Virus record (IMG/VR): IMGVR_UViG_3300037755_000799
Direction: 5' to 3' (one strand)
DNA from: an uncultured virus (IMG/VR IMGVR_UViG_3300037755_000799)
Taxonomy: Duplodnaviria; Heunggongvirae; Uroviricota; Caudoviricetes
Length of the DNA stretch: 64,000 bases
Positions 16,111-62,858 of the stretch are shown here, in pieces. Position numbers and translations under genes: made by a program. How positions within the stretch are numbered: the stretch's first letter is position 1; every line of letters starts with the position of its first letter. The notes under the pieces were generated by a model, which saw nothing but the letters and a program-made list of their open reading frames with translations, searched no databases and was not told the origin of the DNA.

Positions 16111-16761
16111 CTACTCGGACGGCGCGTTGACGCCCTTACGCTCCCAGTAGCGGTTGCGCTGCCGCTCTCGGTGGCATGTTCGGCAGTGCCGCTTGTTCTT
16201 GCTGTCTACATACGTGTTGGCCTCGTCGAACACGTGACCTTGCGGGCACCGAGTCCAATCGCGGTCCGGGTTGCCCTTGCCGCGAAGCACGTCACAGGCA
16301 CGGCAGTACCGCGCTCCCGGGCGGGATGCAATGACCCGCGTATTCGCAGCGTCATACGGGTGGCCCTGCGGGCAGTGCGTCTTGGATGCGTTGTGGTCCG
16401 TCCCGTGCGCCCGCTTGTCGAGATTGTTCTCGCTACGGGTTCCGTACGCCAGGTTGGCCAGATGTGGGTTCATGCGGTTCCCGTCGAGGTGCCTCACCTC
16501 TTGGCCGATTGGGCGTGGACCGAGGAAGGCCGCCGCAACGAGGGCGTGGACGGGGCGCTTCTTGGGCTTGCCGTCGCGCCACAACTCCACCGCCGCATAT
16601 CCGTGTGTGTTCTTTCGCCAGTTCACGAAGATCGGGCTGCCGTCGTGATTGCGCCGCTTCATGCTTCGCACGCGCCCCTCAGGCGATACGAGGTAGTGAC
16701 CCTCGAATCCGGGTATGGCCACCCATTGCTCGTCGCCACAGGTCTGGTTCTGTACGCTCAA
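16111..16761 (-). CDS. NUMOD4-HNH homing endonuclease
   Basis: EQWVAIPGFEGHYLVSPEGRVRS; VHALVAAAFLG..RHLDGNRMNPHLANLAYGT.SEN; two CPQGH repeats. Confidence 0.92.
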   Translation of the reverse strand: MSVQNQTCGDEQWVAIPGFEGHYLVSPEGRVRSMKRRNHDGSPIFVNWRKNTHGYAAVELWRDGKPKKRPVHALVAAAFLGPRPIGQEVRHLDGNRMNPHLANLAYGTRSENNLDKRAHGTDHNASKTHCPQGHPYDAANTRVIASRPGARYCRACDVLRGKGNPDRDWTRCPQGHVFDEANTYVDSKNKRHCRTCHRERQRNRYWERKGVNAPSE

Positions 16762-16833
16762 CGGAGCGCCTCTCTCTTGCTTGGGTCGGGTGCTTCTCAG
16801 CCCGAGTGGCCTCTCACGCCGCTCGGGCTTCTC

Positions 16834-17130
16834 TCATTCGGCCTGCTGTTCAGGGTCCTTCTTCGGGCGCTTCGCCCACCGCGAGTACTCCGAAGCGATG
16901 TCCTGCAACGTGCTCGGCTTCACGCCCAACTCCTTCGCGATTCCTCGGAAGGTGGCTCCCTCCGGGGCGAGGAGTTCGAGTACGGCCTGACGCCTGATCT
17001 CGCGGAGTGCCTTGCTGTGGTCGGGCCACTCCTTGAGCACCCTCGCCACAGCGAGCGCGCGTACCTTCGGGTCCTCGATGTCGGCAAGACCTGCGAGAGC
17101 GTCGAACACGCGCTGCACCTCCTCTTCCAT
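16834..17130 (-). CDS. HTH transcriptional regulator (Kor-like position)
   Basis: TFRGIAKELGVKPSTLQDI; divergent from the transfer genes. Confidence 0.8.
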   Translation of the reverse strand: MEEEVQRVFDALAGLADIEDPKVRALAVARVLKEWPDHSKALREIRRQAVLELLAPEGATFRGIAKELGVKPSTLQDIASEYSRWAKRPKKDPEQQAE

Positions 17131-17165
17131 GCCCTGTCCCTTCCGTGGGCAGGCCGCGTTGCCAG

Positions 17166-17185
17166 TGTACGGGGTATCCCGTACA
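17166..17185. promoter_or_regulatory. Palindromic operator
   Basis: TGTACGGG-gtat-CCCGTACA overlapping a minus-strand TACACT -10. Confidence 0.7.
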
Positions 17186-17292
17186 GTCGGTACTGCGCAG
17201 CCCACGCTGCTCGCCAATGAAAACGGCCCGGCGGGAAATCTCACCTTCCCGCCGGGCCAGCCATCCACCTGCCGTGTACAGGAAGGACAGCC

Positions 17293-17463
17293 GTGCAAGA
17301 GCGTAACGGCCAACCATCTGGCCAGCCCACCCCCGCGCCTCTCGCGCCACGCCCGAACCAGATCCTCGCCACCCCCGCCACCGTCGAGCAATGCCAAGCC
17401 GACTACCAGGCCGCCGAGGACGTACGCCGCGTCATGGACCAACAGGCCACCCAACGCCGCTGA
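17293..17463 (+). CDS. Small hypothetical protein (transfer module)
   Basis: GGAAGGA RBS before GTG; 56 aa open frame. Confidence 0.6.
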   Translation: MQERNGQPSGQPTPAPLAPRPNQILATPATVEQCQADYQAAEDVRRVMDQQATQRR

Positions 17464-17533
17464 CCCCCACACACCGCCGCGCCCCGGCACATCCCCCAGC
17501 CGGGGTGCGGCCACACATCCGATGGAGCACCCC

Positions 17534-17707
17534 ATGTGCCGTGACACCCGCACCACCGAACAAATCCAAAACGCCATCACCGCCGAGGCCACCCTCGCCC
17601 GCCAGATCGAAGACGACCCCATGTCCACCCCGCAGCAGCGCGACCTCGCCGACAAGCTCCACGAGCAGATGAACGCCGAACTGGAAACGCTCGACTGCCG
17701 CCGCTGA
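17534..17707 (+). CDS. Small hypothetical protein (transfer module)
   Basis: GGAG RBS; helical 57 aa. Confidence 0.65.
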   Translation: MCRDTRTTEQIQNAITAEATLARQIEDDPMSTPQQRDLADKLHEQMNAELETLDCRR

Positions 17708-17797
17708 CCGGTAGCCCTCGGCGCGCGTCCCCACCCGGTACGCGCGCCCTGGAGATCCGGCCAGACCCATCCGCCCCGACCACACCCGGAGACCGCA

Positions 17798-18037
17798 ATG
17801 CGAAGCCACCTGCTCCGCAACCTCCTCATCGGCGCCCTCCTCGTCCTCGCCGCCATGCACCCCGAAACCGCCAACACCATCGCGCAACTCGCCGCCGGGA
17901 TGGTCCTCGCCATCGTCACCGGCATCGCCGAAGCCGCCGCCCACCAGCCCGAGGCCGCGCTCCTCACCGCCGGCGCCTGCTACATCGCCCACCAGATCCG
18001 CACCCACCGCCCCCGCACCGCCCGCGCCCGCCACTAA
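17798..18037 (+). CDS. Small membrane protein (Spd-like)
   Basis: Mostly hydrophobic; upstream of FtsK/TraB gene. Confidence 0.7.
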   Translation: MRSHLLRNLLIGALLVLAAMHPETANTIAQLAAGMVLAIVTGIAEAAAHQPEAALLTAGACYIAHQIRTHRPRTARARH

Positions 18038-18052
18038 CCTCGGAGCCTCGAA

Positions 18053-18934
18053 ATGAACCGCGACGACCTCTACGCCCGCGCCACCGCAGTCATCGACGCC
18101 AAGCACGACAAGAGCACCGCCCGCAAACGCGGCGCCCTCGACACCGCCATCCTCGGCACCGTCCCCGTCCTCGCCGTCGCCGTAGCCTTCGCCTCCGGCT
18201 GGTCCCTCTACGACCTCGGCCGGCACTTCCACATGCCCGGCTGGGCCGCGTGGGCCGTGTTCGCGCTCATCGACGTCGTGTGGTTCCAGTCCGCGATCGT
18301 CGTCATCAAAAACCAGCAGTCACCACACCGGGCGATCGAAGCCCACAAGCGGATGCAAGGTATGTTCGCCGTGTCGGTCGCCGCGAACTTCGCCCACGGC
18401 CTGATCCTCTTCGGGGCCACCGTGAACGGGTTCGTTGCGGGCGCGGTGTTCGCGCTGTTCCCGATCGGGTTCAAGGCGGCGTTCTCCAACGCCTTCCCCG
18501 ACTACGTCAAGCGCGCCCGCAACGCCGGGTACGGGGGCGAACTGGAGAAGGCGTTCCACACCGAGGCGCTGATGTTCATCATGGCGGGCGTGGACCAGGT
18601 GAAGGCCGAACTCGGCCAAGCGCCGGACCGGCCGCAGGTCACCGTGGACCGCACACCGGACCGCCCCGAGTCCACGCTGGTTAAGCCTCCTGACCAGGCG
18701 GTGAACCAGATCGAGGCCATCCCTGAACCGGCCCCGGTTCAGCCGGTCCAGGCCGCGGTGAACCGGCCGGATCAGCCGGTTCAGATCGACGACCAGGTCA
18801 ACGAACTCCTTCGTCGTCTCAAGCTCGGCGAGCACATCACCAAGCCGACGGCAGCCAAGATCCTCGGCATCCCCGAGTCCACCGCGTACCGGCGTCTCAC
18901 TGCCGCCCAGGCGCTCCTGAACCAGTACCGCTGA
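18053..18934 (+). CDS. SpdB/DUF2637-like membrane protein with C-terminal HTH
   Basis: About 4 TM helices, SVAANFAH, Pro-rich linker, AAKILGIPESTAYRRL. Confidence 0.75.
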   Translation: MNRDDLYARATAVIDAKHDKSTARKRGALDTAILGTVPVLAVAVAFASGWSLYDLGRHFHMPGWAAWAVFALIDVVWFQSAIVVIKNQQSPHRAIEAHKRMQGMFAVSVAANFAHGLILFGATVNGFVAGAVFALFPIGFKAAFSNAFPDYVKRARNAGYGGELEKAFHTEALMFIMAGVDQVKAELGQAPDRPQVTVDRTPDRPESTLVKPPDQAVNQIEAIPEPAPVQPVQAAVNRPDQPVQIDDQVNELLRRLKLGEHITKPTAAKILGIPESTAYRRLTAAQALLNQYR

Positions 18935-18997
18935 CCGTCCGGCCGCCCCGGCCCCCGCTACACGCGGGGGCTCGCCTGTCTCTGCGGAGCCCCCACC

Positions 18998-20758
18998 GTG
19001 AAGATCGACCGCGTCGACATCATCACCGCCATCACCGTCCCCAGCATCGTCTCCGCAGCAGCCCTGACCGCCGACGGCGTCTACGGCACCACCGCAGCCG
19101 CCATCGAGTTCGGCACCGCCCTCGCGGCAGGGAAGCTGTCGTTCGTGTCCTTCGCGAAGAAGTGGCCAGCCTCGCTCGCCTGGGGCAGCCTCGCTCTCGC
19201 CGGCGTCTCCACGCAGGCGTGGCTCACCGGCACGGTCGGCGGGTTCGCCGCCCTGTACGGGTACGCCATCAGCGCGGCCGCCGTGTTCGGGGCGATGGTC
19301 AAGCACCGGCACGACGCCCGCCACGACCAGGTCAAGCTGGACCACGAGTCGGTGAAGCTGAACACCGCGCTTATCCGGCAGCAGATGGCCCACCATGCCC
19401 TGGTTCAGAAGACCGCGCCCGAACCAGTCCAGTCCGGACCGAACCTGACCGGCCGGACCGTGGAAGAAACGCGCCTGCGGACCGTGGTCCATGAACTGTT
19501 CACGGCCGAACTGCCGGGCTGCACCGTGGAACGGACCCGCACCGGCTGGACCGCCGTCCTGGACCTGCCGGTGAACCTGGACCGAAACAAGCTCAAGTCC
19601 GCCTGGCCCAGGGTCGCCTCGGGGATGGGCGTGGCCGGGGAGTTCATGCTGGAAGACGGGGCGCTCACGAACCAGCTCATCGCCCGGTTCATCGACGGCG
19701 ACCCCCTCGAAGCCGTGGTCCCGTACCAGCGGTTCACCGCAGGCCGGTTCACCGACCCGATCACGCTCGGCGTGGACCGGTTCCTGAACCCGGTCACCGT
19801 TGAACTGGCCTACGCCCACGCCCTCGTCGCTGGTTCATCCAAGTTCGGGAAGTCCACCCTGGTTCGGTCCATCGTCCTCCAGCTCGCGGACCGGCCCGAC
19901 ATCGTGGTCTACGGCGTCGACCTCAAACCGGGTGCGCCGGAGATGACGCCGATGCTGCCGATCCTCCAAGATCTCGCGCAGACCCCGGAGCAGGCGCACG
20001 CCTTCCTCGACTGGCTGAAGGCCGAGTTGCAGGAGCGCGGCGAGATCCTCGCCGCCGCTGGTGACCAGGAGTGGGACCCGGTCAAGCACGGTCGGCCTGC
20101 ACTGTGGGCGGTGTTCGACGAGCTGGGCGAGCTGGTCCGGCAGGCCGACGTGGGTGAGTGGAAGAGGGATCCGGCGTCGAAGAAGCTGGAATCTCTGCTC
20201 GCTTTGGCCCGGTTCGCGGGCATTCATCTGATCGCCGCCACCCAGCAGCCGTCCCGGAAAGTCTTCGGCGGGACCACCGACGCCCGCGGCAACTACAGCG
20301 TCCGCATCAGCACGCGCATGGCGGACCGCGACCACCGCCGGTTCATCTTCGGCACCACCCCCGGATGGGAACCCGGCGACCTCGACGCGCCCGGAAAGTT
20401 CCTCCTCCAGTCCCCGGACCACCAGCAGCCGGCCCCGTACAAGGGCATGTGGCTGACGAAGGACGAGTTCACGGCGGAGGTCGCCCGGATCGGCGCGGAT
20501 ACGGTGAAGGCGCCGGTGGGGAAGCGGCTGGTCCTGCCCGTCAGCGGGGGGACGAATCAGGACAAGGTGAGGGCCGCGCTGGCGAAGTACGGGAACTGCA
20601 CACGCCGCGAGCTGGAGGCCGCGACCGGGCTCACGGAGAAGCAGGTACTCGATGCGGCCCGTGCGCTCGGCCCGGAAGTGGAGCGCTGCGCCGACACCCA
20701 GACGTGGCGGATCCTGCCAGCGAAGGCGTGGGAGGCGCAGGCCATAGCGACGCAGTGA
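18998..20758 (+). CDS. traB: TraB-like FtsK/SpoIIIE DNA translocase
   Basis: N-terminal TM region; Walker A GSSKFGKST, DLKPG, Walker B AVFDELGEL, ATQQPS; C-terminal winged-helix-like TRRELEAATGLTEKQV. Confidence 0.8.
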   Translation: MKIDRVDIITAITVPSIVSAAALTADGVYGTTAAAIEFGTALAAGKLSFVSFAKKWPASLAWGSLALAGVSTQAWLTGTVGGFAALYGYAISAAAVFGAMVKHRHDARHDQVKLDHESVKLNTALIRQQMAHHALVQKTAPEPVQSGPNLTGRTVEETRLRTVVHELFTAELPGCTVERTRTGWTAVLDLPVNLDRNKLKSAWPRVASGMGVAGEFMLEDGALTNQLIARFIDGDPLEAVVPYQRFTAGRFTDPITLGVDRFLNPVTVELAYAHALVAGSSKFGKSTLVRSIVLQLADRPDIVVYGVDLKPGAPEMTPMLPILQDLAQTPEQAHAFLDWLKAELQERGEILAAAGDQEWDPVKHGRPALWAVFDELGELVRQADVGEWKRDPASKKLESLLALARFAGIHLIAATQQPSRKVFGGTTDARGNYSVRISTRMADRDHRRFIFGTTPGWEPGDLDAPGKFLLQSPDHQQPAPYKGMWLTKDEFTAEVARIGADTVKAPVGKRLVLPVSGGTNQDKVRAALAKYGNCTRRELEAATGLTEKQVLDAARALGPEVERCADTQTWRILPAKAWEAQAIATQ

Positions 20759-20960
20759 ACGTGCAGGTCAGCGGCCAGTTTCAGGGGGTCGGATAGGGGG
20801 TCGGCTCGGGGCGTGGTCACGGTCGGGTTGAGGGTCGGCCGCTCGCCCCGGGTTCCGACCCCGAACTCCCGGCCGGCCTGCCACACTGAGTCTGCGCGCC
20901 GGGTCACGCCCGGCACCCCCGAGGAGGCCTCGCTGTTCGTCCCCCCGACGGCGAGGCCTT
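20759..20960 (+). repeat. clt-like short repeats downstream of traB
   Basis: GGGGGTCGG x2, GGTCGGG, AGGGTCGG and inverted CCGACCCC. Confidence 0.5.
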
Positions 20961-21031
20961 CGCCTGTTTCCGCCCGCACTGTCGGTGCCGGCCGCTACGA
21001 TCCGGCGCATCATCACGTCCTTGGGGGGACC

Positions 21032-21373
21032 ATGCGCCGTACCGCTACCGTCGTGTTCGCTGTCGTCGCGCTCGCACTCGCGGGCTGCTCCTCGGGCGGT
21101 GAGGATGATCCCCCGAAGACCGTCACGGTCACTGCGTCGCCGTCGTTGTCTGAGGCTGAGGCGCGGCAGGCGTGCGTGGACGAGTGGCTGGTGGTGCTTC
21201 AGGAGACGCCGGATGATGCGCCGGATGTGGAGGATAAGCCTGCCGTGTGCGAGGGGTTGTCGGGGCAGGCGGCGATGTACGCGGAGGCGCTGATGGCGCG
21301 GAATCAGGCGAACCGGGATAAGCATGATGCGTGCACGAGGGACCCCGCATGCACGAGCTGGCCGGCGCCGTAG
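21032..21373 (+). CDS. Lipoprotein
   Basis: MRR + hydrophobic stretch + LAGC lipobox. Confidence 0.85.
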   Translation: MRRTATVVFAVVALALAGCSSGGEDDPPKTVTVTASPSLSEAEARQACVDEWLVVLQETPDDAPDVEDKPAVCEGLSGQAAMYAEALMARNQANRDKHDACTRDPACTSWPAP

Positions 21374-21424
21374 CCGTACACGAGTTGGCCCCGCTCCGGG
21401 AACTGTCCGGGCGCGGGGCCTTCG

Positions 21425-29938: not shown

Positions 29939-32073
29939 GGTCTCTACGTGCGTTGAGGAATAAGACGCCGGTGCCGTACGTGTCGTCGCGTGGCGGGCTG
30001 TCGATTCCGTGGCGGGCACCGTCCGGGGCTGAGGCGCAGATGCGGGCGATGGGGACGGTGGGAACCCTGTTCTCCATCGTCAACCGCACCAGCAACGCGA
30101 CGGCGCTCGTCGACTGGAAGCTGCTCCGCAAAGCCCCGTCAGGCAAGCTGGAGGACCGGGTTGAGGTCACCTCCCACGCGATCCTCGACCTGTGGAACAA
30201 GCCGAACCGGTTCTTCACCCGGCAAGAGTTGGTCGAGACGGTGCAGCAGCACATCGACCTCACGGGTGAGGGCTGGCTCGTCATCGGCCGGAATCCGCGC
30301 TCGCCGATGCCGCTGGAGTTGTGGCCGGTGCGCCCGGACCGTATCCAGCCGGTGCCGCACCCGGTGGATTTCATCTCCGGCTACCTGTACACCGGCCCGG
30401 ACGGGCGTGAGATCGCGCTGCGTGTCGAGGACGTCATTCAGATCCGGATGCCCAACCCGCTGGACCCGTACCGGGGGATGGGGCCGGTGCAGTCGATCCT
30501 CACCGAACTCGACGCGAGCAGGTACTCGGCTGAGTGGAACCGCAACTTCTTCATGAACAGTGCGGAGCCCGGCGGGATCATCGAACTCCCCTCCGTCCTC
30601 TCCGACCCCGAATGGGACCAGCTCCAAGCCCGCTGGAACGAACAGCACAAGGGCGTCGCCAACGCTCACCGGGTTGCGTTCATCGAGCACGGGCAGTGGA
30701 AGGACCGCAAGTACACGCAGCGGGACATGCAGTTCGCTGAGCTCCGGTCGGTGTCCCGGGACGTGATCCGCGAATCCTTTGGCGCGCCGGCGTTCGTGCT
30801 GGGTGAGGTCGGTGACGTCAACCGGGCGACGGCTGATGCGTCGAAGGTGCTGTTCGCGGAGCAGTTGACGGTGCCGCGCTTGGAGCGTTTCAAGCAGGCG
30901 TTGAACAACGACCTGTTGCCCCTGTACGGCAAGGATGCGGCACGGCTGCTGGAGTTCGACTACTGCGACCCGGTACCCCCGGATGCTGCCGCGCGCAACG
31001 AGGAGCTGACCGCGAAGTCGGCTGCCTATGCCGAGTTCATCGGGGCCGGGGCGGATCCGCGTCTGGTCGCCGAGTATCTCGACTTGCCCGAGTTTGCTGG
31101 GGACGCGGACCGGGATCTGCTGGTGCGGATTGTGACGGGTGCGCCGTCGACGGCGCCGATGATTCTGCCGCTGCTGGGTTTCGACGTCCCGGAGCCGGCT
31201 GCTCCCGCCCCCGCGGTCGCTGCTGTGCCTGTGCAGCAGCCGGCGGCCCGTCTGGACTTGCATCACCATGTGCCGTTCGCGTTGCCCGCCGGGCGGCCGT
31301 CGTACAACCGGGTGTTGGAGCGCGGCGGGGTGCGTGCGCAGGCTGATGACGATGCGTTGGACGCGGTGCGGGTCCAGTTCGAGGAGGCGCTCGCTGGACT
31401 GTTGGAGGCGTGGGAGCCGATCGCGGAGGCGCAGTACGCGGCGGTGGAGGAGCAGATCGCCGCCGCCGTGGATGCTGGGGATACGGAGGCGTTGGCCACG
31501 CTTGTCGTGGACGCGGATGAGGGTGCGCGGGTGCTGCGGCTGGCGCTCGGGGAGATGGCGGAGACGGCGGCCGGGCAGATGGCGGAGGAGGCTGCCGAGC
31601 AGGGTGTGAAGGTGCGTCCGCCGAGGGTGGACAAGGGGCTGCGGAATGCGTTCGGGTCGGAGTTGATTGAGATTGCTGTGGCGACGGCGGCGTTGTTGGC
31701 GGCGGATGTGGCGGGGTCGGCGGGTCGTGAGGCGCTGCGGCTACTCACTCCTGGTGCGGTGGGGCGTGAGGTCGCCTCGCAGGTGGGCGGGTTCCTGCGC
31801 GGGTTGAAGAACTGGTTCCGGCGGGATCAGTTGGGTGGTGCGTTGCATCGGGCGCAGAACACGGCCCGGGTGGCGACGTTGGCCGCTGCGCCTACCGCCC
31901 GGATTTTTGCTAGCGAGCGGAACGATCGCAACACGTGCGGCCCGTGTAAGGAGATCGACGGGCACGAGTTCGACGACTTGGATGCGGTGCGGGCTGCGTA
32001 TGGTGCGGGCGGCTATCTGCGGTGCGAGGGCGGCGTGCGCTGCCGAGGAACCGTGACGGCCCGCTGGGAGTGA
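29935..32073 (+). CDS. HK97-type portal fused to head-morphogenesis (MuF-like) domain
   Basis: LWNKPN, LTGEGW, LWPVRPDR, YRGMGPV, FFMNSAEPGG; C-terminal D.NTCGPC..IDG...RCRG. Confidence 0.9.
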   Translation: MRSLRALRNKTPVPYVSSRGGLSIPWRAPSGAEAQMRAMGTVGTLFSIVNRTSNATALVDWKLLRKAPSGKLEDRVEVTSHAILDLWNKPNRFFTRQELVETVQQHIDLTGEGWLVIGRNPRSPMPLELWPVRPDRIQPVPHPVDFISGYLYTGPDGREIALRVEDVIQIRMPNPLDPYRGMGPVQSILTELDASRYSAEWNRNFFMNSAEPGGIIELPSVLSDPEWDQLQARWNEQHKGVANAHRVAFIEHGQWKDRKYTQRDMQFAELRSVSRDVIRESFGAPAFVLGEVGDVNRATADASKVLFAEQLTVPRLERFKQALNNDLLPLYGKDAARLLEFDYCDPVPPDAAARNEELTAKSAAYAEFIGAGADPRLVAEYLDLPEFAGDADRDLLVRIVTGAPSTAPMILPLLGFDVPEPAAPAPAVAAVPVQQPAARLDLHHHVPFALPAGRPSYNRVLERGGVRAQADDDALDAVRVQFEEALAGLLEAWEPIAEAQYAAVEEQIAAAVDAGDTEALATLVVDADEGARVLRLALGEMAETAAGQMAEEAAEQGVKVRPPRVDKGLRNAFGSELIEIAVATAALLAADVAGSAGREALRLLTPGAVGREVASQVGGFLRGLKNWFRRDQLGGALHRAQNTARVATLAAAPTARIFASERNDRNTCGPCKEIDGHEFDDLDAVRAAYGAGGYLRCEGGVRCRGTVTARWE

Positions 32074-32434: not shown

Positions 32435-32605
32435 CTACCTTCGGACGCGGGGTTCCGGGTTGCAGAGGACGTAGGTGTTCACGTACGCCATGGCCGCCCA
32501 CAAGACGGCGATGGCGGTTGATCCCATCCAGCCCCATTGCGCTCCGTGGTAGGCCATGAGGAAGACAGCGGTCCCTGCGATCAGTGCCGCGATGATGGGC
32601 TTCAC
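32435..32605 (-). CDS. Small two-TM membrane protein
   Basis: Coupled; hydrophobic. Confidence 0.65.
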   Translation of the reverse strand: MKPIIAALIAGTAVFLMAYHGAQWGWMGSTAIAVLWAAMAYVNTYVLCNPEPRVRR

Positions 32606-32940
32606 AGCGTCACCTCTGGGAGTCGCACCAGCATGTACTGGCCGTCCGGCATCTGCCCGTCGCCCACGTACGCGCCGAGGCTCTTGCAGTAGATCAGCGC
32701 CTTCCCAGCAGGTACTTCCTCGGAGGCGCACACCTCGTAGCCGAGCACCCGCCCGCCGATCAGTACGGAGGCGCCGCCGTCGGTGGGGTTGAGCCACAGT
32801 TCGTCATCGGACCGCATGGGTGGCCACTGCTTCCGCGTCCAGATGATGACGTCGTAGATGGCTTGGCCGAGTGGGCCTTCCATGACTTCGGCGGCTCGGT
32901 GCTGGCGGATCTGTTCGGGCGTCATCCACTCGCCGCTCAC
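32602..32940 (-). CDS. Hypothetical protein
   Basis: GAGGAG RBS; GTGA overlap. Confidence 0.7.
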   Translation of the reverse strand: MSGEWMTPEQIRQHRAAEVMEGPLGQAIYDVIIWTRKQWPPMRSDDELWLNPTDGGASVLIGGRVLGYEVCASEEVPAGKALIYCKSLGAYVGDGQMPDGQYMLVRLPEVTL

Positions 32941-33707
32941 GTGGTCTCCTCGGTCAAGCCCATGTCCTGCTTTGCGATGTGCTGCGCCCGCTGCTCCGAG
33001 TACACCTTCCGCACCCGCTGCGCATCCCAGCCCTCGACCGTGAGCGCGGTCCGGGGAGGGCTGCCGACATCGCCGCGCAGCCAGGCGTACTCGACACGGC
33101 CAGGCCGGCCATCGAAGTCCTTCTCGACGCACGACTCATGAGGCTCCAGTGGCGGCACCCAGAAAATCTTGTGCCACGGACGCGTCTTCACCGGCCCATC
33201 GCGAACCTCCAGCGTCAGAACATCGGCCCCGACGGAGTAGGCGTGCGCGTCTTCGGCTCGGGTGAAGGCGTAGCGGGGTTCGTGGTCTGCCTCGGCATCT
33301 TGGTCCGGCAGGGGCACGTAGACCATGCGCGGCTCAGGTTGGCCCAGCGACACCACCCTCGGTGGGATGCCGTCCATGCCCGCGAACTCGTGATGCGACC
33401 ACACCGTGACATGCCGGAACCCCTCCGCCTTCAACCGCTCCTCCAACTCCTCCGGCCGCGCATAGTTCCACGCGAACCAAATGCAGGCGCTTCCTGCGAC
33501 CTTGTGGCCGCCCTGGAGTTGCTGCCAGTCGTCGCGGTTGCAGGAGATGACGGGCATGTGGACTGCCCTGTGCGAGTTGTCCGAGTCGGGGTACAGGACG
33601 TCTCGGATGATGTCGGCGACCTTCGGCGCAATGTCCTCGGCGCTGATCCATCCGGTGGGTCCGTCGCTGTCGCCGATGATGACGAACATGTCGGTCGCGT
33701 TGCTCAC
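32937..33707 (-). CDS. Hypothetical protein (possibly two-domain)
   Basis: GTGA overlap chain. Confidence 0.7.
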   Translation of the reverse strand: MSNATDMFVIIGDSDGPTGWISAEDIAPKVADIIRDVLYPDSDNSHRAVHMPVISCNRDDWQQLQGGHKVAGSACIWFAWNYARPEELEERLKAEGFRHVTVWSHHEFAGMDGIPPRVVSLGQPEPRMVYVPLPDQDAEADHEPRYAFTRAEDAHAYSVGADVLTLEVRDGPVKTRPWHKIFWVPPLEPHESCVEKDFDGRPGRVEYAWLRGDVGSPPRTALTVEGWDAQRVRKVYSEQRAQHIAKQDMGLTEETT

Positions 33708-34147
33708 GGTGTGGGTTCTTCTTCCTCGGGCTCGGCGGGGTCGGTTTCCGACGCATTCGACTTCCCCATGTGCAAGATGCCCCGCGTCCACCGCGCTTGC
33801 TCCGGCGACACATACTCGCCAACCTCGGCGTCCGGGACGTGCGAGTACACGTACGCGCCGTCCACTGCCCGCTTCGGACTGTCGTCACGTTCGCGTTCCA
33901 GCCAGTACAGGGCCGACCGGCCACGGATCGGCTCGGGACGGTCGCGCACTCTCCACTCGGGGTAGCCCCATTCCACGCGGCACAGCCACACGGCCTCGGG
34001 AACGGGCAGGCCGTCGGCGGGTGTCCATGGCGCGGCGATGGCCCATCGCGGCGGCGGCATGATCCCGCGTTCTTCGTCGATCCAGTCGGTTGCTGGGCCG
34101 CCGCTGAGCATGAGTCGGATCTGTTCGTTGTCGGCTGGTGTGCTCAC
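33704..34147 (-). CDS. Hypothetical protein
   Basis: GTGA overlap; LSGGP motif. Confidence 0.7.
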   Translation of the reverse strand: MSTPADNEQIRLMLSGGPATDWIDEERGIMPPPRWAIAAPWTPADGLPVPEAVWLCRVEWGYPEWRVRDRPEPIRGRSALYWLERERDDSPKRAVDGAYVYSHVPDAEVGEYVSPEQARWTRGILHMGKSNASETDPAEPEEEEPTP

Positions 34148-34518
34148 GGCGTGGGCTCCCGGTGCTCGGCGGGGATGGATAGGCAACGCCCCTGCGAGCA
34201 TTCGTACGAGCAGCACATCAGGGCCATGCAGCGGCCGGGACGGCAGTGCCGATCGAGGGGAAGCGGGTTGGTCTCCTTGCCGCTCATGTCCGGCGCGTGG
34301 GTCATGCCGAGCCGGATCACAGCCTCATCAGCATGCGCGTACACAAAGCCGTCGCACTCGACTTCGACACCGTTCCTGTAGATGGCCTTGATGCGGTAGT
34401 CCCGCTCGGTGTTCTCGGGCACGCCGAGTGGGAAGCGGACTAGGTCACCGACCTGGAAGTACTCGGTGAACCCGCGTTGCTGCTGGCGGGTACGGAGCAG
34501 GGATTCAACGTCGCTCAC
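34144..34518 (-). CDS. Hypothetical protein with Cys-rich tail
   Basis: GTGA overlap. Confidence 0.65.
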   Translation of the reverse strand: MSDVESLLRTRQQQRGFTEYFQVGDLVRFPLGVPENTERDYRIKAIYRNGVEVECDGFVYAHADEAVIRLGMTHAPDMSGKETNPLPLDRHCRPGRCMALMCCSYECSQGRCLSIPAEHREPTP

Positions 34519-34832
34519 GGCTGTGGCCTTTCGTCGGCGATCGCCCACGTCGGCCAGGACTCCGGCGGCTCCACAGCGAGCGGCACCGTACGCTCTTCCG
34601 GCGCGGCGCAGTCCTGGCCGTCCACGTGATACCTGGCGCCTTCGAGGGTGCGCAGGTAGGCCCGGTACCGGATCGTCCGCCCGTCGGGGCCGTCCTCAAC
34701 GGTCAGGTCGTGGTTGGTGGACACGTCGTCGGGGTCGATGCCGTTCGCCGCAACCCACGTGCTGATCTCCTCGGCGCGGCCCTGAGCGACGTGCAGGGGC
34801 CAGAGGGTCTTGTTGCTGATCAGGCGCCTCAC
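34515..34832 (-). CDS. Hypothetical protein
   Basis: AAGGAG RBS; WVAANGIDP. Confidence 0.75.
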   Translation of the reverse strand: MRRLISNKTLWPLHVAQGRAEEISTWVAANGIDPDDVSTNHDLTVEDGPDGRTIRYRAYLRTLEGARYHVDGQDCAAPEERTVPLAVEPPESWPTWAIADERPQP

Positions 34833-35452
34833 TGCTGCTCCTTGGTGGCGGGGATGTAGCTGGGGATCTTCTTCAACTCCGGGTCCAGGATCTCCATCGC
34901 CTTCACCTCCGGGCGCCGCTCGACCTCCCGTACACCGAGGGCGAAGGCGTACAGGTTGCCGAACATGGCCTCGGCGAGCCCGTCAGGGAGCAGCGACGGC
35001 CCGGACGGTGCAGGACGCTTAGGCTCGGGCCGGTCCAGTGCGGCGCGCTGCTCGCCGGTGAGCCCGTACCCCCCAGCGAGCGCGAGCAGCGTCTCGCAGT
35101 CGTTGGTGTGCTCGACGAGCGCCCCATACTCCGAGTCGTCGCCGCAGCCGAGGCAGGCGTAGGGCTCCCAGGAGACGCCGGCGGGTGCGTGGTGTTCGAG
35201 GATCTTCCGGTCGGCGGCACAACGACGCAGCACGGCGGCCGGATCGGCATGGGCGATGATCAAGCTCATGTCGGCCTGCACCTGCACGTTGCTGCCGCTT
35301 CGTACGTAGTCCCACATTCGGGCGACGGTGCCAGCGTCAGCCATGACGGTGTCGTCGTGTGTGTCGGCGGTCCATGGTCCGGGCGTGGCGGCGCGGGCGA
35401 GCGTTTCCGTCACGTCGATCTGCTGGGTGATCCAGCCATGCAAGTCAGGCAT
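34829..35452 (-). CDS. DUF6221-like protein
   Basis: ARAATPGPW, DPAAVLRRCAADRKILEHH, C..C...CETLLALA..Y. Confidence 0.75.
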   Translation of the reverse strand: MPDLHGWITQQIDVTETLARAATPGPWTADTHDDTVMADAGTVARMWDYVRSGSNVQVQADMSLIIAHADPAAVLRRCAADRKILEHHAPAGVSWEPYACLGCGDDSEYGALVEHTNDCETLLALAGGYGLTGEQRAALDRPEPKRPAPSGPSLLPDGLAEAMFGNLYAFALGVREVERRPEVKAMEILDPELKKIPSYIPATKEQQ

Positions 35453-35895
35453 CACCAATCCTCCTCGGTCCGCGTGCTCGTCTCCCGGACAGCCCGGAAC
35501 ACCGTCCCCGGATGCTCGGCCCGCAGCCGCTCCAACTCCCGGCGTGCGTCCTCCCGGTACGGGCTGCGGTCGACGCACACGGCAAGCCGGCGGCCGAGCT
35601 TCGTCTCGATGACCCACTCGTTGTACTCACCCCGGGTGCCGGTGTTCAGGTCGAGGGCGGTCGGCCGTTGTCTACTCGCGGGCGTTTCCTGTGGCGGGAT
35701 GAAGTATTGGGTGAAGTCGTCGATGCGTGTGGCCAACCCTTTGTTGCGGTGGCGGTCGCGGGTGGTGTCTGCGGGCGCTGTCCAGTAGACGTTGTCTCCC
35801 TCCACGCTGGTGACGATGGCTGTGTCTGCTGGGTCGTCTACGGGACGCCAGATCTCACCGGCCTTGGGGTGCCGTGTGCTCTGTTCGGCAGTCAC
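35452..35895 (-). CDS. Hypothetical protein
   Basis: GAGGAG RBS; coupled. Confidence 0.7.
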   Translation of the reverse strand: MTAEQSTRHPKAGEIWRPVDDPADTAIVTSVEGDNVYWTAPADTTRDRHRNKGLATRIDDFTQYFIPPQETPASRQRPTALDLNTGTRGEYNEWVIETKLGRRLAVCVDRSPYREDARRELERLRAEHPGTVFRAVRETSTRTEEDW

Positions 35896-36083
35896 GGAAT
35901 CTCCTCGGGTTGTGGGAGTGGGCGGGCGTACAGGCGGACCAACTCCGAGTACAGGTCCTCCGGCCGCATCTCGGGCGGGTCGGGCCACGGGACGGCGGGC
36001 AGCAGTTGCAGCGGATGGCCGGGCCCGGCGTGCCAGTAGTAGTCGCGGCCGAACAGGCGCACCGGACGCAGACGGTCACCCAC
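35892..36083 (-). CDS. Small hypothetical protein
   Basis: Fills the coupled chain. Confidence 0.55.
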   Translation of the reverse strand: MGDRLRPVRLFGRDYYWHAGPGHPLQLLPAVPWPDPPEMRPEDLYSELVRLYARPLPQPEEIP

Positions 36084-36321
36084 GCCGGGTCCTGAACGCG
36101 AGGAAGTACGCCGGAACCCCAACCGGCCAGACGAACGCAGTCACAAGCCCCATCAGGATGCCGCTGACGACGTGTTCGGTTTCAATCCGAAGCGGCTCGC
36201 CAGGATCCGGGAACGAGACCATGCGCCTGCTCCAGTCGGCCTCGTCGATGGTGATGTCGATGGCGAGGATGACTGCGGAGATCGCGGCGCCGATGACGTA
36301 GACGGTCTCGAAGACGTTCAC
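36076..36321 (-). CDS. Two-TM membrane protein
   Basis: GAGGAG RBS; hydrophobic, AFVWP. Confidence 0.7.
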   Translation of the reverse strand: MNVFETVYVIGAAISAVILAIDITIDEADWSRRMVSFPDPGEPLRIETEHVVSGILMGLVTAFVWPVGVPAYFLAFRTRRG

Positions 36322-36713
36322 GGGGTCTCCTCGGGGGTGGTGTGAGGCAGTGGGTCCACCAGGCCGTTGCGCGAGCTTCCTGTGAAGTCGATTCGGCAAC
36401 CGGGCCACGGCCGCTTGAAGTGCTCCATACGCCCGGTGCGCGGGTTGGTGACGCACGCCCACTCGTTGACGTCGTGCTCCGTGCAGAGCGGCGTCACGAG
36501 GTGCGCGTTCGTGTTGCTGCCGTACAGGGCCAGCCAGCGCGTCTTGATCGCCTCGTACTCGGCCTCCGTGAGCGGCTCAGGGATAGTGAGCACTCGGGGC
36601 GTGGGGTGCTGAAACTTCGACCGCTGGAGGTGGTAGCGGCGGGGAGCCGCCCACGTGCAGAGGGCGATGACGGCCACCGCGACGACGATGACAACGATGT
36701 GGGCAACGCTCAC
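36318..36713 (-). CDS. Membrane-anchored protein with portal-like internal segment
   Basis: N-terminal TM helix; PEPLTEAEYEAIKTRW...NAH resembles this phage's portal. Confidence 0.7.
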   Translation of the reverse strand: MSVAHIVVIVVAVAVIALCTWAAPRRYHLQRSKFQHPTPRVLTIPEPLTEAEYEAIKTRWLALYGSNTNAHLVTPLCTEHDVNEWACVTNPRTGRMEHFKRPWPGCRIDFTGSSRNGLVDPLPHTTPEETP

Positions 36714-37123
36714 GGGGCGGGCTCCTTGATCGTGAAGTCGAGTTCGTTCCGCAACCGCCGTAGCCGCTCCCACGGCAGACACTGCTGCTGATGCCCCTTC
36801 TCGATCGCCGTCCGCATGTCCGGGTCCGGTGACTGGTAGGCGGCGGCGAGGATCCACAGCCAGTCCCGGTCGGTCCAGTCGGTGCTGCCGTGACAGCAGG
36901 TGATCCCGTTCGCGCGTGGGGGTGTTGAGCGTCCTCGGGTGGCGGGGCAGCCGAGTTCGATGAGGGGGTACGAGTAGCGGCCGATCATCAGGTCGCAGTC
37001 GGCGTGGTCGGTGACGCCGTCAGCGATGGCGGCTTCGGCCTGCTCGGGCCGGTTGAAGCCGGGGTCGTGGACGATGATGGCGGGGTCGTGGGAGAGGCAG
37101 AGGACGCTGTAGTTGCTGCTCAC
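36710..37123 (-). CDS. Cys/His hypothetical protein
   Basis: LCLSHDP, H..C.LMIGRYSYPL. Confidence 0.75.
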   Translation of the reverse strand: MSSNYSVLCLSHDPAIIVHDPGFNRPEQAEAAIADGVTDHADCDLMIGRYSYPLIELGCPATRGRSTPPRANGITCCHGSTDWTDRDWLWILAAAYQSPDPDMRTAIEKGHQQQCLPWERLRRLRNELDFTIKEPAP

Positions 37124-37425
37124 GACTGCTCCTTGTGCGGGGTGGCGCCGTCGGCGGTGTCGTTCCACACGGTGCGCCCGTTCGGCCCGATGACGCTGGC
37201 GTGGTAGTCGCCGTACTGGCCGTGTCCTATCCGGTGCCCGGCGCGGAGGATGCACGTGTACGAGCCGTACTCGTTGTCGAGGCGGGCTGTGCAGGGCGGC
37301 AGGTCGGCGTGGACGGTAGCGACATGCTGGTCTGTGCGGCTGGGCCACTGGAAGGTGTCGCAGTGGGGGCAGGCTTCGACGGTGAAGTCGTGGGGGCCGG
37401 GGGGTTCGGTGGGACAAGTGCTCAC
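37120..37425 (-). CDS. Cys/His-rich hypothetical protein
   Basis: CPHC, CILRAGH. Confidence 0.7.
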   Translation of the reverse strand: MSTCPTEPPGPHDFTVEACPHCDTFQWPSRTDQHVATVHADLPPCTARLDNEYGSYTCILRAGHRIGHGQYGDYHASVIGPNGRTVWNDTADGATPHKEQS

Positions 37426-37435
37426 GGGTTTCTCC

Positions 37436-37639
37436 TCAGTCGCCGTTGCGGTCGTCGATGACGTAGGCCTCGGCGTCGTTGTCCCAGGACACTGTCAGTA
37501 CGTTGTCGTCCAGGCCCAGTTCCAGCCGGACGTGTGGGGTGAGGCTGACGCCGTGGGTTTTGGTGATCTCGGAGAGTGCGTCGAGGACGGTGCCGATCGT
37601 GCGGAGCTGCTCGGCGGTCAGGTTCAACGTGGCACTCAC
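37436..37639 (-). CDS. Small hypothetical protein
   Basis: AAGGAG RBS. Confidence 0.75.
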   Translation of the reverse strand: MSATLNLTAEQLRTIGTVLDALSEITKTHGVSLTPHVRLELGLDDNVLTVSWDNDAEAYVIDDRNGD

Positions 37640-38160
37640 GGCTGCTCCTTGGGCTGCTCGATCCGGCTACGCGCGGCGGCGTAGAGACGGGCCGCATGCT
37701 GGCCGATGTGCGCGTACTTCTCCTCGGTCGTATGGCCGTCCCACTGCGCCCGGACGTCGTCAGCAGGGACGTGCTCGACGTGGGCGTACAGCTCGGCGTC
37801 TTGGGGCGCGATGTGCCATGACGCCTGCTTGCCGCCGATTCGGAGGTAGAGGACCTGCCAGCCGTCCTCGTCGACGTCGGGTGCGGGTGCGATAACCGAC
37901 GGGTGAAGCGCGGCGAGTAGCGCGAGGAGTTGGGCGCGTTCGCGGTAGGCGCCGTTGAGTTGCTCTTCGAGGTCGGGCGCCGTGGGGCTGTTGTGTGCTG
38001 TGGCGATGTAGCGGAGCACGGTGGTGATCGCGGATCGTGTCGACGTGTCCACGGTGCTGCCGATGTGGGCGCGGCCTTCGGTGGCGTCGAGGTGTCGGGC
38101 GGCGAGGATGACCATCCCGCTGGGCGGGTCGATGGTGATGCGTTTGCGGGTGTCGGTCAC
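37636..38160 (-). CDS. WDGH-motif domain protein
   Basis: AYRERAQLLALL...QASWHI...WDGHTTEEKY. Confidence 0.7.
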   Translation of the reverse strand: MTDTRKRITIDPPSGMVILAARHLDATEGRAHIGSTVDTSTRSAITTVLRYIATAHNSPTAPDLEEQLNGAYRERAQLLALLAALHPSVIAPAPDVDEDGWQVLYLRIGGKQASWHIAPQDAELYAHVEHVPADDVRAQWDGHTTEEKYAHIGQHAARLYAAARSRIEQPKEQP

Positions 38161-38645: not shown

Positions 38646-40073
38646 ATGAGCCACACGCGGCGATCGTGGAATACCGCCACCCCCGAAACCATCGCCGAAC
38701 GCGGACGAGCCATGCGACCCACACTCCCGACACCCGACGGCGAACAGACCTGGTACCGCATCCGCAACGCCCTCGACGAAGGCGGCACCCCATACGCATC
38801 CATCTCTGTCTATGGGGACATCGGTTCATGGGGAATTACGGCCGCGTCCTTCATGGAGGAGCTGAAGGCCGTCGACGCGCCAGAGATCAGATTGTCCATT
38901 TCGTCCCCTGGGGGAGACCTCTTCGACGGGCTGGCGATACACAATGCCCTTCGCTCCCACCGGGCGAAGGTCGTGGTGCAAGTCGACGCGCTCGCCGCGT
39001 CGATCGCCTCTGTGATCGCAATGGCCGGGGACCGGATCATCGCTGCTCCGCACAGTCAATTCATGATCCACAACGCGGCCGGAGTAGCCGCAGGCGAAGC
39101 CACCGAGCTCCGCGAGTACGCCGACTTCCTCGACAAGCAGTCCGAGAACATCGCCGGGGTCTATGCAGAACGCGCAGGCGGCACCGTCAAGCACTGGCTC
39201 CGCCTCATGGCGGCAGAGACCTGGTTCTTCGCCGACGAAGCGGTAGAGGCCGGGCTCGCCGATGAGGTCGGCAAGCCGATGCGGCGCGACGACGAAGAGA
39301 TGATGCCCGACGACCGGGCGATGGCCGCCGCGTGGGACCTCAGCGTCTACAACTACGCGCACACCAGCCGCGAGACCGCACCCGCGCCCGAGACCGCACC
39401 CGCGACCGTCGAACCCCCCGCCGCACCCGCGCCCACTGCGGCTCCCGTCTTCGACCCGTCCGTGTTCCGGGCCGCCACCACCGCAGCGCTCGACCCGATG
39501 CCCGGCTACCAGCCCGAGCACCTCCGCTCGCTGATGGCCGGAGTCGCCGGTGACGCCCCCGCCGCACCCGCACCCGTACGCCAAGCCGCCCCGTACGTGC
39601 CCCCGCCCACGGACGTCGTGCCCGAACCCGACGAGCAGACCGTGGCCGCCGGCTACTTCCGCTCCCTCATGGCGGGTGTGGCGGGTGACGCACCGGCCGT
39701 ACCCGCCCCGCGGCAGGATCCGGTCCCGTATGTGCCGCCGCCTGTAGACGTCGTGCCTGAGGCGGATCCGCAGACGGTGGCGGTCGGCTACTTCCGGTCC
39801 CTGTTCGCTGGGGTCGCCAACGATGCTCCGGCAGCCCCGCAGCCGGAGCGCCCGGCACCGGCCGTGCACGCCCCGGCTGCGGCCGTCGTGCCCGAACCGC
39901 CGCCGCCTGCCGGGCAGGTGGTGGCCGACTACCTGCGCGCCGTCATGACTGGTGTCGCCAACGACGCCCCCGCACCACCCCAGGCCGCCGTGCCCGAGCC
40001 GACCACGCCGGAGCCGGTCCAAGCGATCGACCAATCAGCAGTACGACGTGCCCTTTGGGAGGCAGAGCTATGA
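38646..40073 (+). CDS. ClpP-like head maturation protease with repetitive C-terminal extension
   Basis: SSPGGDLFDG, LAASIASVIAMAGD, FMIHN, ETWFFADEAVEAGLAD. Confidence 0.92.
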   Translation: MSHTRRSWNTATPETIAERGRAMRPTLPTPDGEQTWYRIRNALDEGGTPYASISVYGDIGSWGITAASFMEELKAVDAPEIRLSISSPGGDLFDGLAIHNALRSHRAKVVVQVDALAASIASVIAMAGDRIIAAPHSQFMIHNAAGVAAGEATELREYADFLDKQSENIAGVYAERAGGTVKHWLRLMAAETWFFADEAVEAGLADEVGKPMRRDDEEMMPDDRAMAAAWDLSVYNYAHTSRETAPAPETAPATVEPPAAPAPTAAPVFDPSVFRAATTAALDPMPGYQPEHLRSLMAGVAGDAPAAPAPVRQAAPYVPPPTDVVPEPDEQTVAAGYFRSLMAGVAGDAPAVPAPRQDPVPYVPPPVDVVPEADPQTVAVGYFRSLFAGVANDAPAAPQPERPAPAVHAPAAAVVPEPPPPAGQVVADYLRAVMTGVANDAPAPPQAAVPEPTTPEPVQAIDQSAVRRALWEAEL

Positions 40074-62504: not shown

Positions 62505-62684
62505 CTACGCCGCCTCCACCACCTCGGCCCGTACCGCGGCCGCCCACTCCGCGATCAGCCGCTCATACACCGCCCGCTGACCGTCGTCGAGCCGTACCGA
62601 CGGGTGCGGCCACAGCGCACGGATCTCCTCGTTCACGACGGCAGCAGACCGCACGGAACCAGGGCGCTCGAACGTCGGGGGCAT
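62505..62684 (-). CDS. Small hypothetical protein divergent from XRE gene (not in ORF track)
   Basis: MPPTFERPGSVRSAAVVNEEIRALW...YERLIAEWAAAVRAEVVEAA*; TAGACT -10 lies 6 nt before ATG. Confidence 0.7.
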   Translation of the reverse strand: MPPTFERPGSVRSAAVVNEEIRALWPHPSVRLDDGQRAVYERLIAEWAAAVRAEVVEAA

Positions 62685-62858
62685 GGTCTGAGTCTAACGA
62701 TCGAGACAGCCCGTCACTCATCGGCCTCCTGCCGGAAACGCACCCCGCCCCACACGAGAAAGACCCCCACGGACCGCAATCCGTAAGGGCCTTACCCAAG
62801 TACCGCCGTCGGCCGAGGCGTACCGTTCCAAGTGTCGAAGCAAGGAACGGAGACCAGT

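Follow-up and report, generated by a model that had tools for sequence, protein, structure and literature searches.

The stretch of DNA analysed here, 64,000 nucleotides of an uncultured Caudoviricetes virus (IMG/VR record IMGVR_UViG_3300037755_000799; the window in what follows), possesses a rightward operon built around a gene for an FtsK/SpoIIIE-type ATPase, referred to below as the pump. A divergently transcribed helix-turn-helix (HTH) regulator gene lies at its left edge, followed by a promoter match enclosing a palindrome, three small open reading frames (ORFs), a protein with four transmembrane helices (the 4-TM protein) and a C-terminal HTH, the ATPase itself and an array of short repeats past its stop codon (Table 1). 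An earlier inspection of the letters (the sequence-only reading) had picked out these parts, apart from the promoter match, and had likened them to the conjugal transfer genes of Streptomyces plasmids. Each part was recovered in the present analysis, the palindrome with the standing of a candidate operator.

Table 1. Features of the pump operon and its flanking sites (positions are those of the window)
Feature	Positions	Strand	Basis
Divergent HTH regulator, 98 aa, kor-like position	16834..17130	-	Pfam HTH_23, E 1.3e-6
Sigma-70-like promoter match TTGCCA-17-TACAGT of the rightward operon	17159..17187	+	motif scan
Candidate operator palindrome TGTACGGGGTATCCCGTACA	17166..17185		8-bp arms, between the promoter hexamers
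Leader inverted repeat, 13-bp perfect stem, A run ahead	17225..17258		on the - strand, a terminator-like hairpin then a T run
Small ORF 1 (56 aa), the leading gene of the operon	17293..17463	+	GTG start, GGAAGGA ribosome-binding site
Small ORF 2, 61 aa, soluble	17522..17707	+	GC3 gene calling; cluster c16, with homologues limited to L013 and L021
Small ORF 3, 79-aa hydrophobic membrane protein, Spd79 position	17798..18037	+	hydropathy
4-TM + HTH protein, 293 aa, DUF2637-like/SpdB-like	18053..18934	+	Pfam, hydropathy, AF2 model
TraB-like FtsK/SpoIIIE ATPase, 586 aa	18998..20758	+	PF01580, E 3.3e-14; phrog_1358 'FtsK/SpoIIIE-like'
Word CAGGTC just past the stop codon, independent of repeat type	20764..20769	+	locus comparison
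clt-like array of GGGTCGG-type words, four in forward orientation (spaced by 12, 22 and 12) and a fifth inverted	20784..20863		repeat scan
GC-rich hairpin AGGCCTCGC...GCGAGGCCT then TTCGCCTGTTTCC	20925..20972	+	inverted repeat I25; sequence

The pump gene is intact in all 28 loci compared (12 genome loci, 15 viral loci and the window). Its Walker A (G279-x4-G284-K285-S286) and Walker B (D374-E375) motifs are invariant among 37 aligned homologues, down to 24% identity. The AlphaFold2 (AF2) model, with a predicted local distance difference test (pLDDT) score of 88.6, comprises four N-terminal helices, an alpha/beta domain, a RecA-like motor and a winged helix at residues 520–572, the last made of helices 520–531, 536–543 and 547–556 and a beta hairpin. 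N-terminal helices 5–26 and 83–101 exceed the hydropathy threshold, from which membrane association of this end is predicted. The top Foldseek matches are the conjugation coupling protein TcpA of pCW3 (2.4e-19) and FtsK motors (8.7e-19), and a sequence search of solved structures returned the same ranking. The motor and C-terminal HTH of the ATPase align collinearly with those of pIJ101 Tra (28% identity across 357 residues, E 4e-12), and plasmid_TraB (NF041214) is its best NCBIfam match (E 7e-9), with FtsK next (2.7e-5).

Past the stop codon, the window carries the hexamer GGTCGG at +29, +41, +63 and +75 and its inverse CCGACC at +97 (20787–20860); four GGGTCGG copies thus fall within 76 bp. 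Phased 8-bp words, direct plus inverted, begin 26–29 nt past the stop codon, and the offsets between the array words recur in other loci. The density of own-type hexamers reaches 3–5 per 160 nt, compared with 0.09–0.29 expected. A second, type-independent word, C[AT]GGTC, stands no more than 35 nt from the stop codon in 28 of 28 loci.

The repeat words fall into three types, each of which is paired with its own variant of helix 3, the third helix of the ATPase winged helix (residues 547–557 in the AF2 model). Type A combines helix EKQVLDAARAL with the word GGGGTCGG (16 loci), type B combines ERQVLKAIEGL with GGGTCCC/GGGGACC (9 loci) and type C combines DKQVRDAAGAL with GGGGGTGG (3 loci). Helix variant and word are concordant at every locus (28/28; none discordant). 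Loci 56–58% identical to the window share its type, and among those 72–75% identical some have the type of the window and others type B. A motor tree, computed with the last 85 residues left out, needs 8 type changes, and its well-supported branches force at least 3 changes for type A and at least 3 for type B; because repeated changes are required, helix 3 and the words have been exchanged together several times. We consider it highly probable, judging by this covariation, that the winged helix of the ATPase reads the repeats.

Three other roles for the repeats were rejected. A terminase (pac) site is discounted because the small terminase does not track repeat type: its identity is 49.2% within types and 47.4% between them, and nearest neighbours often belong to another type. 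Reading by the HTH of the 4-TM protein is discounted because the recognition helix of that domain, ESTAYRRL, is nearly invariant across the three types. A KOPS-like role throughout the genome is discounted because the word is neither enriched nor skewed, GGGTCGG being present 31 times in the whole window against 32.8 expected (13 on the + strand, 18 on the - strand). Repeat type is likewise not tracked by the kinds of divergent regulator, by the small membrane protein or by the genes downstream of the array.

The winged helix of FtsK and SpoIIIE reads G-rich 8-mers (KOPS and SRS, respectively), and the window ATPase shares with these systems the motor fold and a C-terminal winged helix. It differs in that its words form one local cluster instead of being skewed along the genome, and in length, since chromosomal FtsK occupies stop-to-stop frames of 927–958 aa compared with 586 aa here. 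KOPS face each other around dif, as the forward and inverted words of the array do, and one could imagine a pump that runs to the convergence of opposed words, activates a tyrosine recombinase and resolves dimers or concatemers before packaging. The complete relatives do encode a tyrosine recombinase, and the module always lies 1.0–6.2 kb upstream of the small terminase gene. We nevertheless regard such FtsK/Xer-like resolution as improbable. The single cluster with no skew along the genome is one difficulty; others are that the integrase of one relative, G005, is about 30 kb from the pump module, that the ATPase groups away from chromosomal FtsK, and that membrane partners and a kil-kor-like regulator are unexpected for such a system. 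In addition, the isolated phage Dagobah, introduced below, packages its DNA with no pump gene.

Two observations were made just past the array. At 20877–20890, CTGCCACACTG or TTGACAG..CTGCGACACTGA is found in nearly all of the 27 loci L001–L027, whatever their repeat type, and represents either a conserved promoter-like site or some other site. In L007 and L025, a 248-aa ORF (ending at L007:12605) follows the array directly; its N-terminal part is unrelated, and its C-terminus bears a second, paralogous winged helix, EKQVLSGLAAL...WRL.

At the other end of the operon, a divergent gene on the - strand recurs at this position in each of the 16 loci whose upstream flank was long enough for gene-order comparison. 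Its products are of unrelated kinds, namely HTH_23 (8 loci), HTH_17/MerR (5) and proteins with no family match (3). The promoter match of the window is the sole one between 16700 and 21400, where shuffled sequences give 0.2 expected; TTGCCA and TACAGT both recur in L004 and L007, TTGCCA in L027 and TACAGT in L005. The palindrome GTACGGG...CCCGTAC is kept in relatives whose HTH protein is 68–100% identical, and different palindromes occupy the same place where this protein has diverged to 33–44% identity (GTATGGCATGCCATAC in L005, CTGTAGGGGACCCCTACAG in L007). A palindrome that changes along with the HTH protein is as expected of an operator and its repressor. The stem of the leader inverted repeat is maintained with differing sequences in L004, L011, L012, L027 and L005/L007.

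The distance between the two ends of the operon bears on another explanation, in which the pump would act in host takeover or exclusion, disturbing chromosome segregation or septation or else expelling or blocking incoming DNA of plasmids or phages, and the repeats would be autoregulatory. PHROGs assigns phage FtsK-like proteins to the class 'moron, auxiliary metabolic gene and host takeover', two phage papers, in the portions of them available, tie FtsK-like genes to replication or host development, and HerA/FtsK-fold ATPases of defence complexes occur among the weaker fold matches. A specificity-matched array of 4–5 phased sites that has switched with helix 3 at least 3 times fits autoregulation poorly, and autoregulation by the repeats is hard to explain because promoter and operator lie 3.6 kb upstream. 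We give host takeover or exclusion little credence.

The gene for the 4-TM protein adjoins the ATPase gene in 16 of 16 loci. Its product possesses four hydrophobic segments, a disordered Pro/Gln-rich linker and a C-terminal three-helix HTH (residues 242–292), which the AF2 model gives with confidence (pLDDT ~96). The Pfam family DUF2637 scores E 5e-4 and 20.4 bits on this protein, below the cut-off of 22.8, and is matched by 5 of 31 homologues at E <= 0.01. An hhalign comparison with pIJ101 SpdB covers 102 columns (probability 57%, E 1e-4). Complex prediction for residues 1–145 of the ATPase and 1–195 of the 4-TM protein returned a score of 0.00, which gives no verdict and is evidence neither way. 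Among the smaller genes, the 79-aa membrane protein belongs to cluster c2, found in 13 of 16 loci, and the other 3 encode a different small protein, c12; the small membrane protein measures 79–84 aa across loci. Small ORF 2 has no match in Pfam, PHROG or NCBIfam. Small ORF 1 was not picked by the gene caller based on G+C content at third codon positions (GC3); its start region is matched in L004, L005, L007, L011, L012 and L027 when compared by eye, without alignment.

The second half of the 4-TM gene contains an over-represented word. TGAACC/GGTTCA occurs 8 times in the gene with 0.6 expected, and the region of interest is 18690–18930. Of these, five fall within the linker region, some of them arranged as CTGAACCGG/CCGGTTCAG inverted pairs, and the copies use codons rare in the window DNA (GTT, CCT and GAA). 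In relatives the same half of the gene is rich in other words, 7-mers such as GTCCGGA (8 copies in L011) and CTGAGCC (8 copies in L012). These words may form a further array of cis-sites or may simply result from repeats in the peptide.

In its layout the operon resembles the transfer regions of Streptomyces plasmids such as pSVH1, pIJ101, pJV1 and pWTY27, in which one FtsK-like ATPase (TraB, Tra or TraA), membrane-associated and ending in a winged helix, acts together with a clt locus. According to the available parts of two papers, clt loci consist of direct 7–9 bp repeats and/or inverted repeats beside tra, partly overlapping its 3' end, and the TraB winged helix reads them through helix alpha-3 (PMC3583192, PMC4447253). 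In the window family, too, short repeats, both direct and inverted, lie at or immediately beyond the 3' end of the pump gene, and, as in plasmid tra operons, there are a divergent gene for a putative repressor with a candidate operator and small membrane-protein genes within the same operon; in pIJ101, korA is divergent from tra-spdA-spdB, which matches the arrangement of the window. The resemblance to Tra, clt and Spd put forward by the sequence-only reading extends to gene order, protein architecture, a cis-site by the pump gene and a divergent regulator with operator. Several differences are also apparent. Unlike plasmid Tra, the window pump resides on a tailed-phage genome of 59–78 kb with terminase, portal, capsid, tail and lysis genes; its identity to Tra proteins is only about 27–28%, and it misses the curated TraB model. 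The membrane genes precede the pump gene here and follow it on Tra plasmids, and the repeat words differ from those of pWTY27, pJV1 and pIJ101 as far as these are given in the accessible portion of PMC3583192.

With four transmembrane helices, a place in the pump operon and a 79-aa membrane protein as neighbour, the 4-TM protein is similar to Spd proteins (SpdB2 of pSVH1, SpdB of pIJ101). The pSVH1 layout is spdB3-spd79-spdB2, and SpdB2 homologues have been noted on the phages phiC31 and VWB (both from the available part of PMC4447253). On the 7-kb Streptomyces plasmid p7, an FtsK-like gene is accompanied by a small ORF and by the gene for a DUF2637 protein whose C-terminus shows a weak HTH. 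Unlike Spd proteins, the 4-TM protein has a well-defined, nearly invariant C-terminal HTH, and its sequence match to them is weak.

The phylogeny of the ATPase was reconstructed from 23 proteins (589 columns, LG+C20). A single split of moderate support (88/89, not starred) divides the tree in two. On the FtsK side are three chromosomal FtsK proteins, gp196 of mycobacteriophage Wanda and six other genomic FtsK-like frames; on the Tra side are four plasmid Tra proteins, Mischief19 gp79, Gilgamesh gp10 together with a protein from a 130-kb plasmid, and the window family. The kinship with TraB suggested by the sequence-only reading receives moderate support as far as the side of the tree is concerned, and falls short in the long branches and the low score on the curated TraB model. 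Because the branches are long and the named Tra references few, we read the ATPase as lying on the Tra side and not as a member of a proven clade.

FtsK/SpoIIIE proteins are known from other tailed phages as actinophage 'FtsK-like DNA translocase' genes (Gilgamesh, Mischief19 and cluster-J-type phages such as Wanda), and the window gene is like them in this respect; the Wanda protein groups with chromosomal FtsK and not with the window family. In the parts available, Streptomyces phage papers list FtsK-like genes with neither a function nor a cis-site. Gilgamesh gp10 is the best phage match of the ATPase (32.5% identity over 63% of the query). Its best plasmid matches are L064 (NZ_CP070374.1) and four other Streptomyces 'plasmids', 129.6–132.6 kb in size and 32.5–38% identical. 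The FtsK-like protein of the 130-kb plasmid is sister to Gilgamesh gp10 in the tree, and the Gilgamesh genome measures 129,136 bp; the 129.6–132.6 kb records may be Gilgamesh-like phage genomes or phage-plasmids.

The window itself has a G+C content of 66–72% and about 80 genes (GC3-based calling). Pfam matches between 28.3 and 59.5 kb include the large terminase, portal, ClpP-type protease, HK97-type capsid, a carbohydrate-binding tail protein and an amidase, and the left part encodes DNA methylases and an HNH/ResIII helicase. This gene content identifies the window as a tailed-phage genome. The pump module is an integral, conserved part of the phage family and takes the same position, ahead of the terminase, across the 27 related loci. 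Survey of the relatives found the same order in 16 of 16 loci: divergent gene on the - strand, small ORFs on the + strand, small membrane protein, 4-TM protein and ATPase. The distance to the small terminase given above holds for all 21 loci in which that gene was found, and the large terminase, portal, protease and capsid genes follow downstream in relatives. The family is sizeable, with at least 293 of the scored candidate proteins reaching E <= 0.001; lengths of 584–596 aa and identities of 73–96% were recorded for the 120 proteins listed. Dagobah, the isolated phage with the most similar capsid (55% identity), has no annotated FtsK gene, and tblastn for the pump gene gave no match in it; since Dagobah is devoid of such a gene, the module is accessory to particle production.

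This constancy bears directly on the proposal that the module is a degraded remnant of a plasmid or of an actinomycete integrative and conjugative element (AICE), inserted by chance in one prophage. No integrase or Rep gene adjoins it in the window, and the gene at 16111–16761 (- strand), left of the operon regulator, encodes an HNH homing endonuclease (NUMOD4 and HNH_3; phrog_1492, E 1e-69), both of which would suit a stray insertion. That homing endonuclease is shared only by the window and L021 among the 16 flanked loci, in every one of which the operon keeps its place; the ATPase gene is uniformly intact, the synteny of terminase, portal, protease and capsid is kept, and the module is present in two complete genomes (59 kb and 78 kb), each with a single tyrosine integrase match. 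We find an inserted, degraded element, an outcome that the sequence-only reading had itself named as a danger to its proposal, to be contradicted by these data and scarcely credible. The AICE-like make-up that it had ascribed to the module did not hold up either. In the available text of Ghinet et al. 2011, an AICE is a compact element of Int, Rep and Tra modules; unlike this, the module has neither Int nor Rep nearby and belongs to a phage genome of 59–78 kb.

Family profiles detected no integrase, ParA/ParB or Rep among the 67 window proteins scanned. The absence of an integrase or Rep near the module, as had been remarked from the sequence, is therefore confirmed within that set, and the complete relatives have their one tyrosine integrase elsewhere. 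No tRNA genes were found in the window. Among five relative records searched, three gave one tyrosine integrase match each, including both complete genomes. When ORFs of the integrase region from three relatives were compared with the window by tblastn, only a small neighbouring gene at 62505–62747 was found. It encodes 59 aa; its homologue adjoins the tyrosine integrase in two related records, and in the window an XRE-TPR regulator gene is next to it instead of the integrase. Either the phage border falls at this point or the window lacks the integrase.

Relatives of the ATPase lie within Streptomyces chromosomal contigs of 400–630 kb (up to 634 kb), and the related IMG/VR records include two proviruses as well as two genomes, of 59,443 and 78,540 bp, that are classed as complete on account of direct terminal repeats. 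The phage family is temperate. The designation of the window as a prophage is provisional: the prophage state of this copy is presumed from the chromosomal location of its relatives, and the window itself shows neither integrase nor tRNA gene. Parts of the stretch were found in soil and sediment metagenome runs from 22 studies. Among Streptomyces plasmids in PLSDB, none shares the window capsid protein.

We hypothesize that the divergent HTH protein would repress the operon through the palindrome overlapping the promoter, following kil-kor logic. The ATPase, once expressed, would be seated in the membrane by its N-terminal helices and form an FtsK-like ring, and helix 3 of its winged helix would read the phased 8-bp words 3' of its own gene as a clt-like site. 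The pump could then drive the excised or replicating phage genome as double-stranded DNA (dsDNA) across hyphal cross-walls, possibly into neighbouring hyphae, with the 4-TM HTH protein and the 79-aa membrane protein assisting as Spd-like partners. As a result, the phage genome would spread through or between mycelia in the absence of virions, beside ordinary particle production. Taken as a whole, the explanation we lean towards, by a modest measure, is a TraB/clt/Spd-like system for carrying the phage genome through cross-walls and perhaps from one hypha to another. The data themselves establish the components, their conservation, their likeness to Tra and clt, and the protein–DNA covariation. 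Binding, ring formation, pumping, its direction and timing, and the biological pay-off are here inferred from the likeness to known systems, and service in virion-independent spread is to be understood in the same conditional sense.

There are precedents for such a dual mode of life, the plasmid-phages pZL12 and pFP4, which we cite from descriptions by others. Plasmid-phages conjugate as episomes and also form particles, according to the accessible text of Thoma et al. 2014, who cite the pFP4 work; both pZL12 and pFP4 are extrachromosomal plasmids, and pZL12 encodes ParA/ParB (PMC4487206, as far as available). The SpdB2 homologues of phiC31 and VWB count as a further precedent. The window family shares with pZL12 and pFP4 the combination of virion genes and a tra-like gene. 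Unlike these plasmids, it is found in chromosomal contigs and has a tyrosine integrase, and no ParA/ParB or Rep match occurs among the 67 window proteins. Within the literature covered, with most subscription journals outside it, no TraB/clt module has been described in an integrating tailed phage, nor have helix/repeat specificity types.

A number of points weigh against a transfer function. Covariation between helix and word indicates that the repeats are read, and does not show the purpose of the binding. The loci of one family are not independent samples, an objection that the tree analysis limits. On the curated TraB model NF041214 the ATPase reaches 34.7 bits and the cut-off is 800; pIJ101 Tra itself gives no match with NF041214 at E <= 0.01, which means that some Tra proteins fall outside the reach of the model. 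The tree was made with no references from pSVH1, pJV1, pSG5, SLP1 or pSAM2, and the placement on the Tra side depends on one moderately supported split among very long branches. The window regulator is of the HTH_23 type, compared with GntR-type TraR/KorA. The sequence relationship between the 4-TM protein and Spd proteins is weak and suggestive only, with DUF2637 below its cut-off: hhalign gave no match to the DUF2637 protein of plasmid p7, and BLASTP against this protein and pIJ101 SpdB gave nothing significant. Finally, no RNA runs matching 16800–21400 were found among the metagenome runs.

The same components could also form a machine for vertical or internal distribution alone, in which replicating phage DNA would be held and pumped into neighbouring compartments or prespores of the infected or lysogenic mycelium, so that the phage would be present in every compartment or spore and none would reach other individuals. 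SffA and FtsK, which act at sporulation septa, provide a model for this. Reading of a cis-site on the phage's own DNA fits internal distribution equally well, and, as the relatives integrate by means of a tyrosine integrase, transfer between individuals is not needed for persistence. However, a prophage that has integrated passes to the progeny with the chromosome in any case, and the characterised proteins nearest to the ATPase in architecture serve in transfer. Sequence cannot separate spread within a mycelium from spread between mycelia, and we judge a purely internal role to be rather unlikely, though the most plausible of the alternatives considered.

Returning to the TraB/clt/Spd-like system, we speculate that integrating temperate phages of Streptomyces might routinely carry a working TraB/clt pair. 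An induced or newly entered genome would then pass between compartments and between hyphae as naked dsDNA, a second, particle-free route of infection in a multicellular host, and the three helix/word pairs would be specificity groups that stop co-resident phages from mobilising one another. This wider proposal is tentative, and we hold it to be somewhat doubtful. If the transfer function is true, a widespread group of Streptomyces prophages spreads in two ways, by particles and by plasmid-style DNA pumping through the mycelium, and models of phage spread, lysogenisation and gene flow in filamentous bacteria would change. It would also provide a function for the 'FtsK-like translocase' genes left unexplained in actinophage genome papers. 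The three natural helix/word pairs are a ready system for the study of DNA reading by FtsK-type winged helices.

The GC-rich hairpin at the right edge of the module is the probable end of the operon; a simple terminator scan did not flag it. A lipoprotein gene follows 3' of the operon (21032–21373), whose product has a signal peptide with an LAGC lipobox; similar start regions occur in L002 and L011, and the gene is outside the conserved core. Further along, about 12 small genes on the reverse strand, DUF6221 among them, form a block at 32602–38160 between the portal gene (ending at 32073) and the protease gene (starting at 38853), unlike in relatives, where portal and protease genes are directly adjacent. 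For two genes of this block, homologues are found close to the pump operon of L004.

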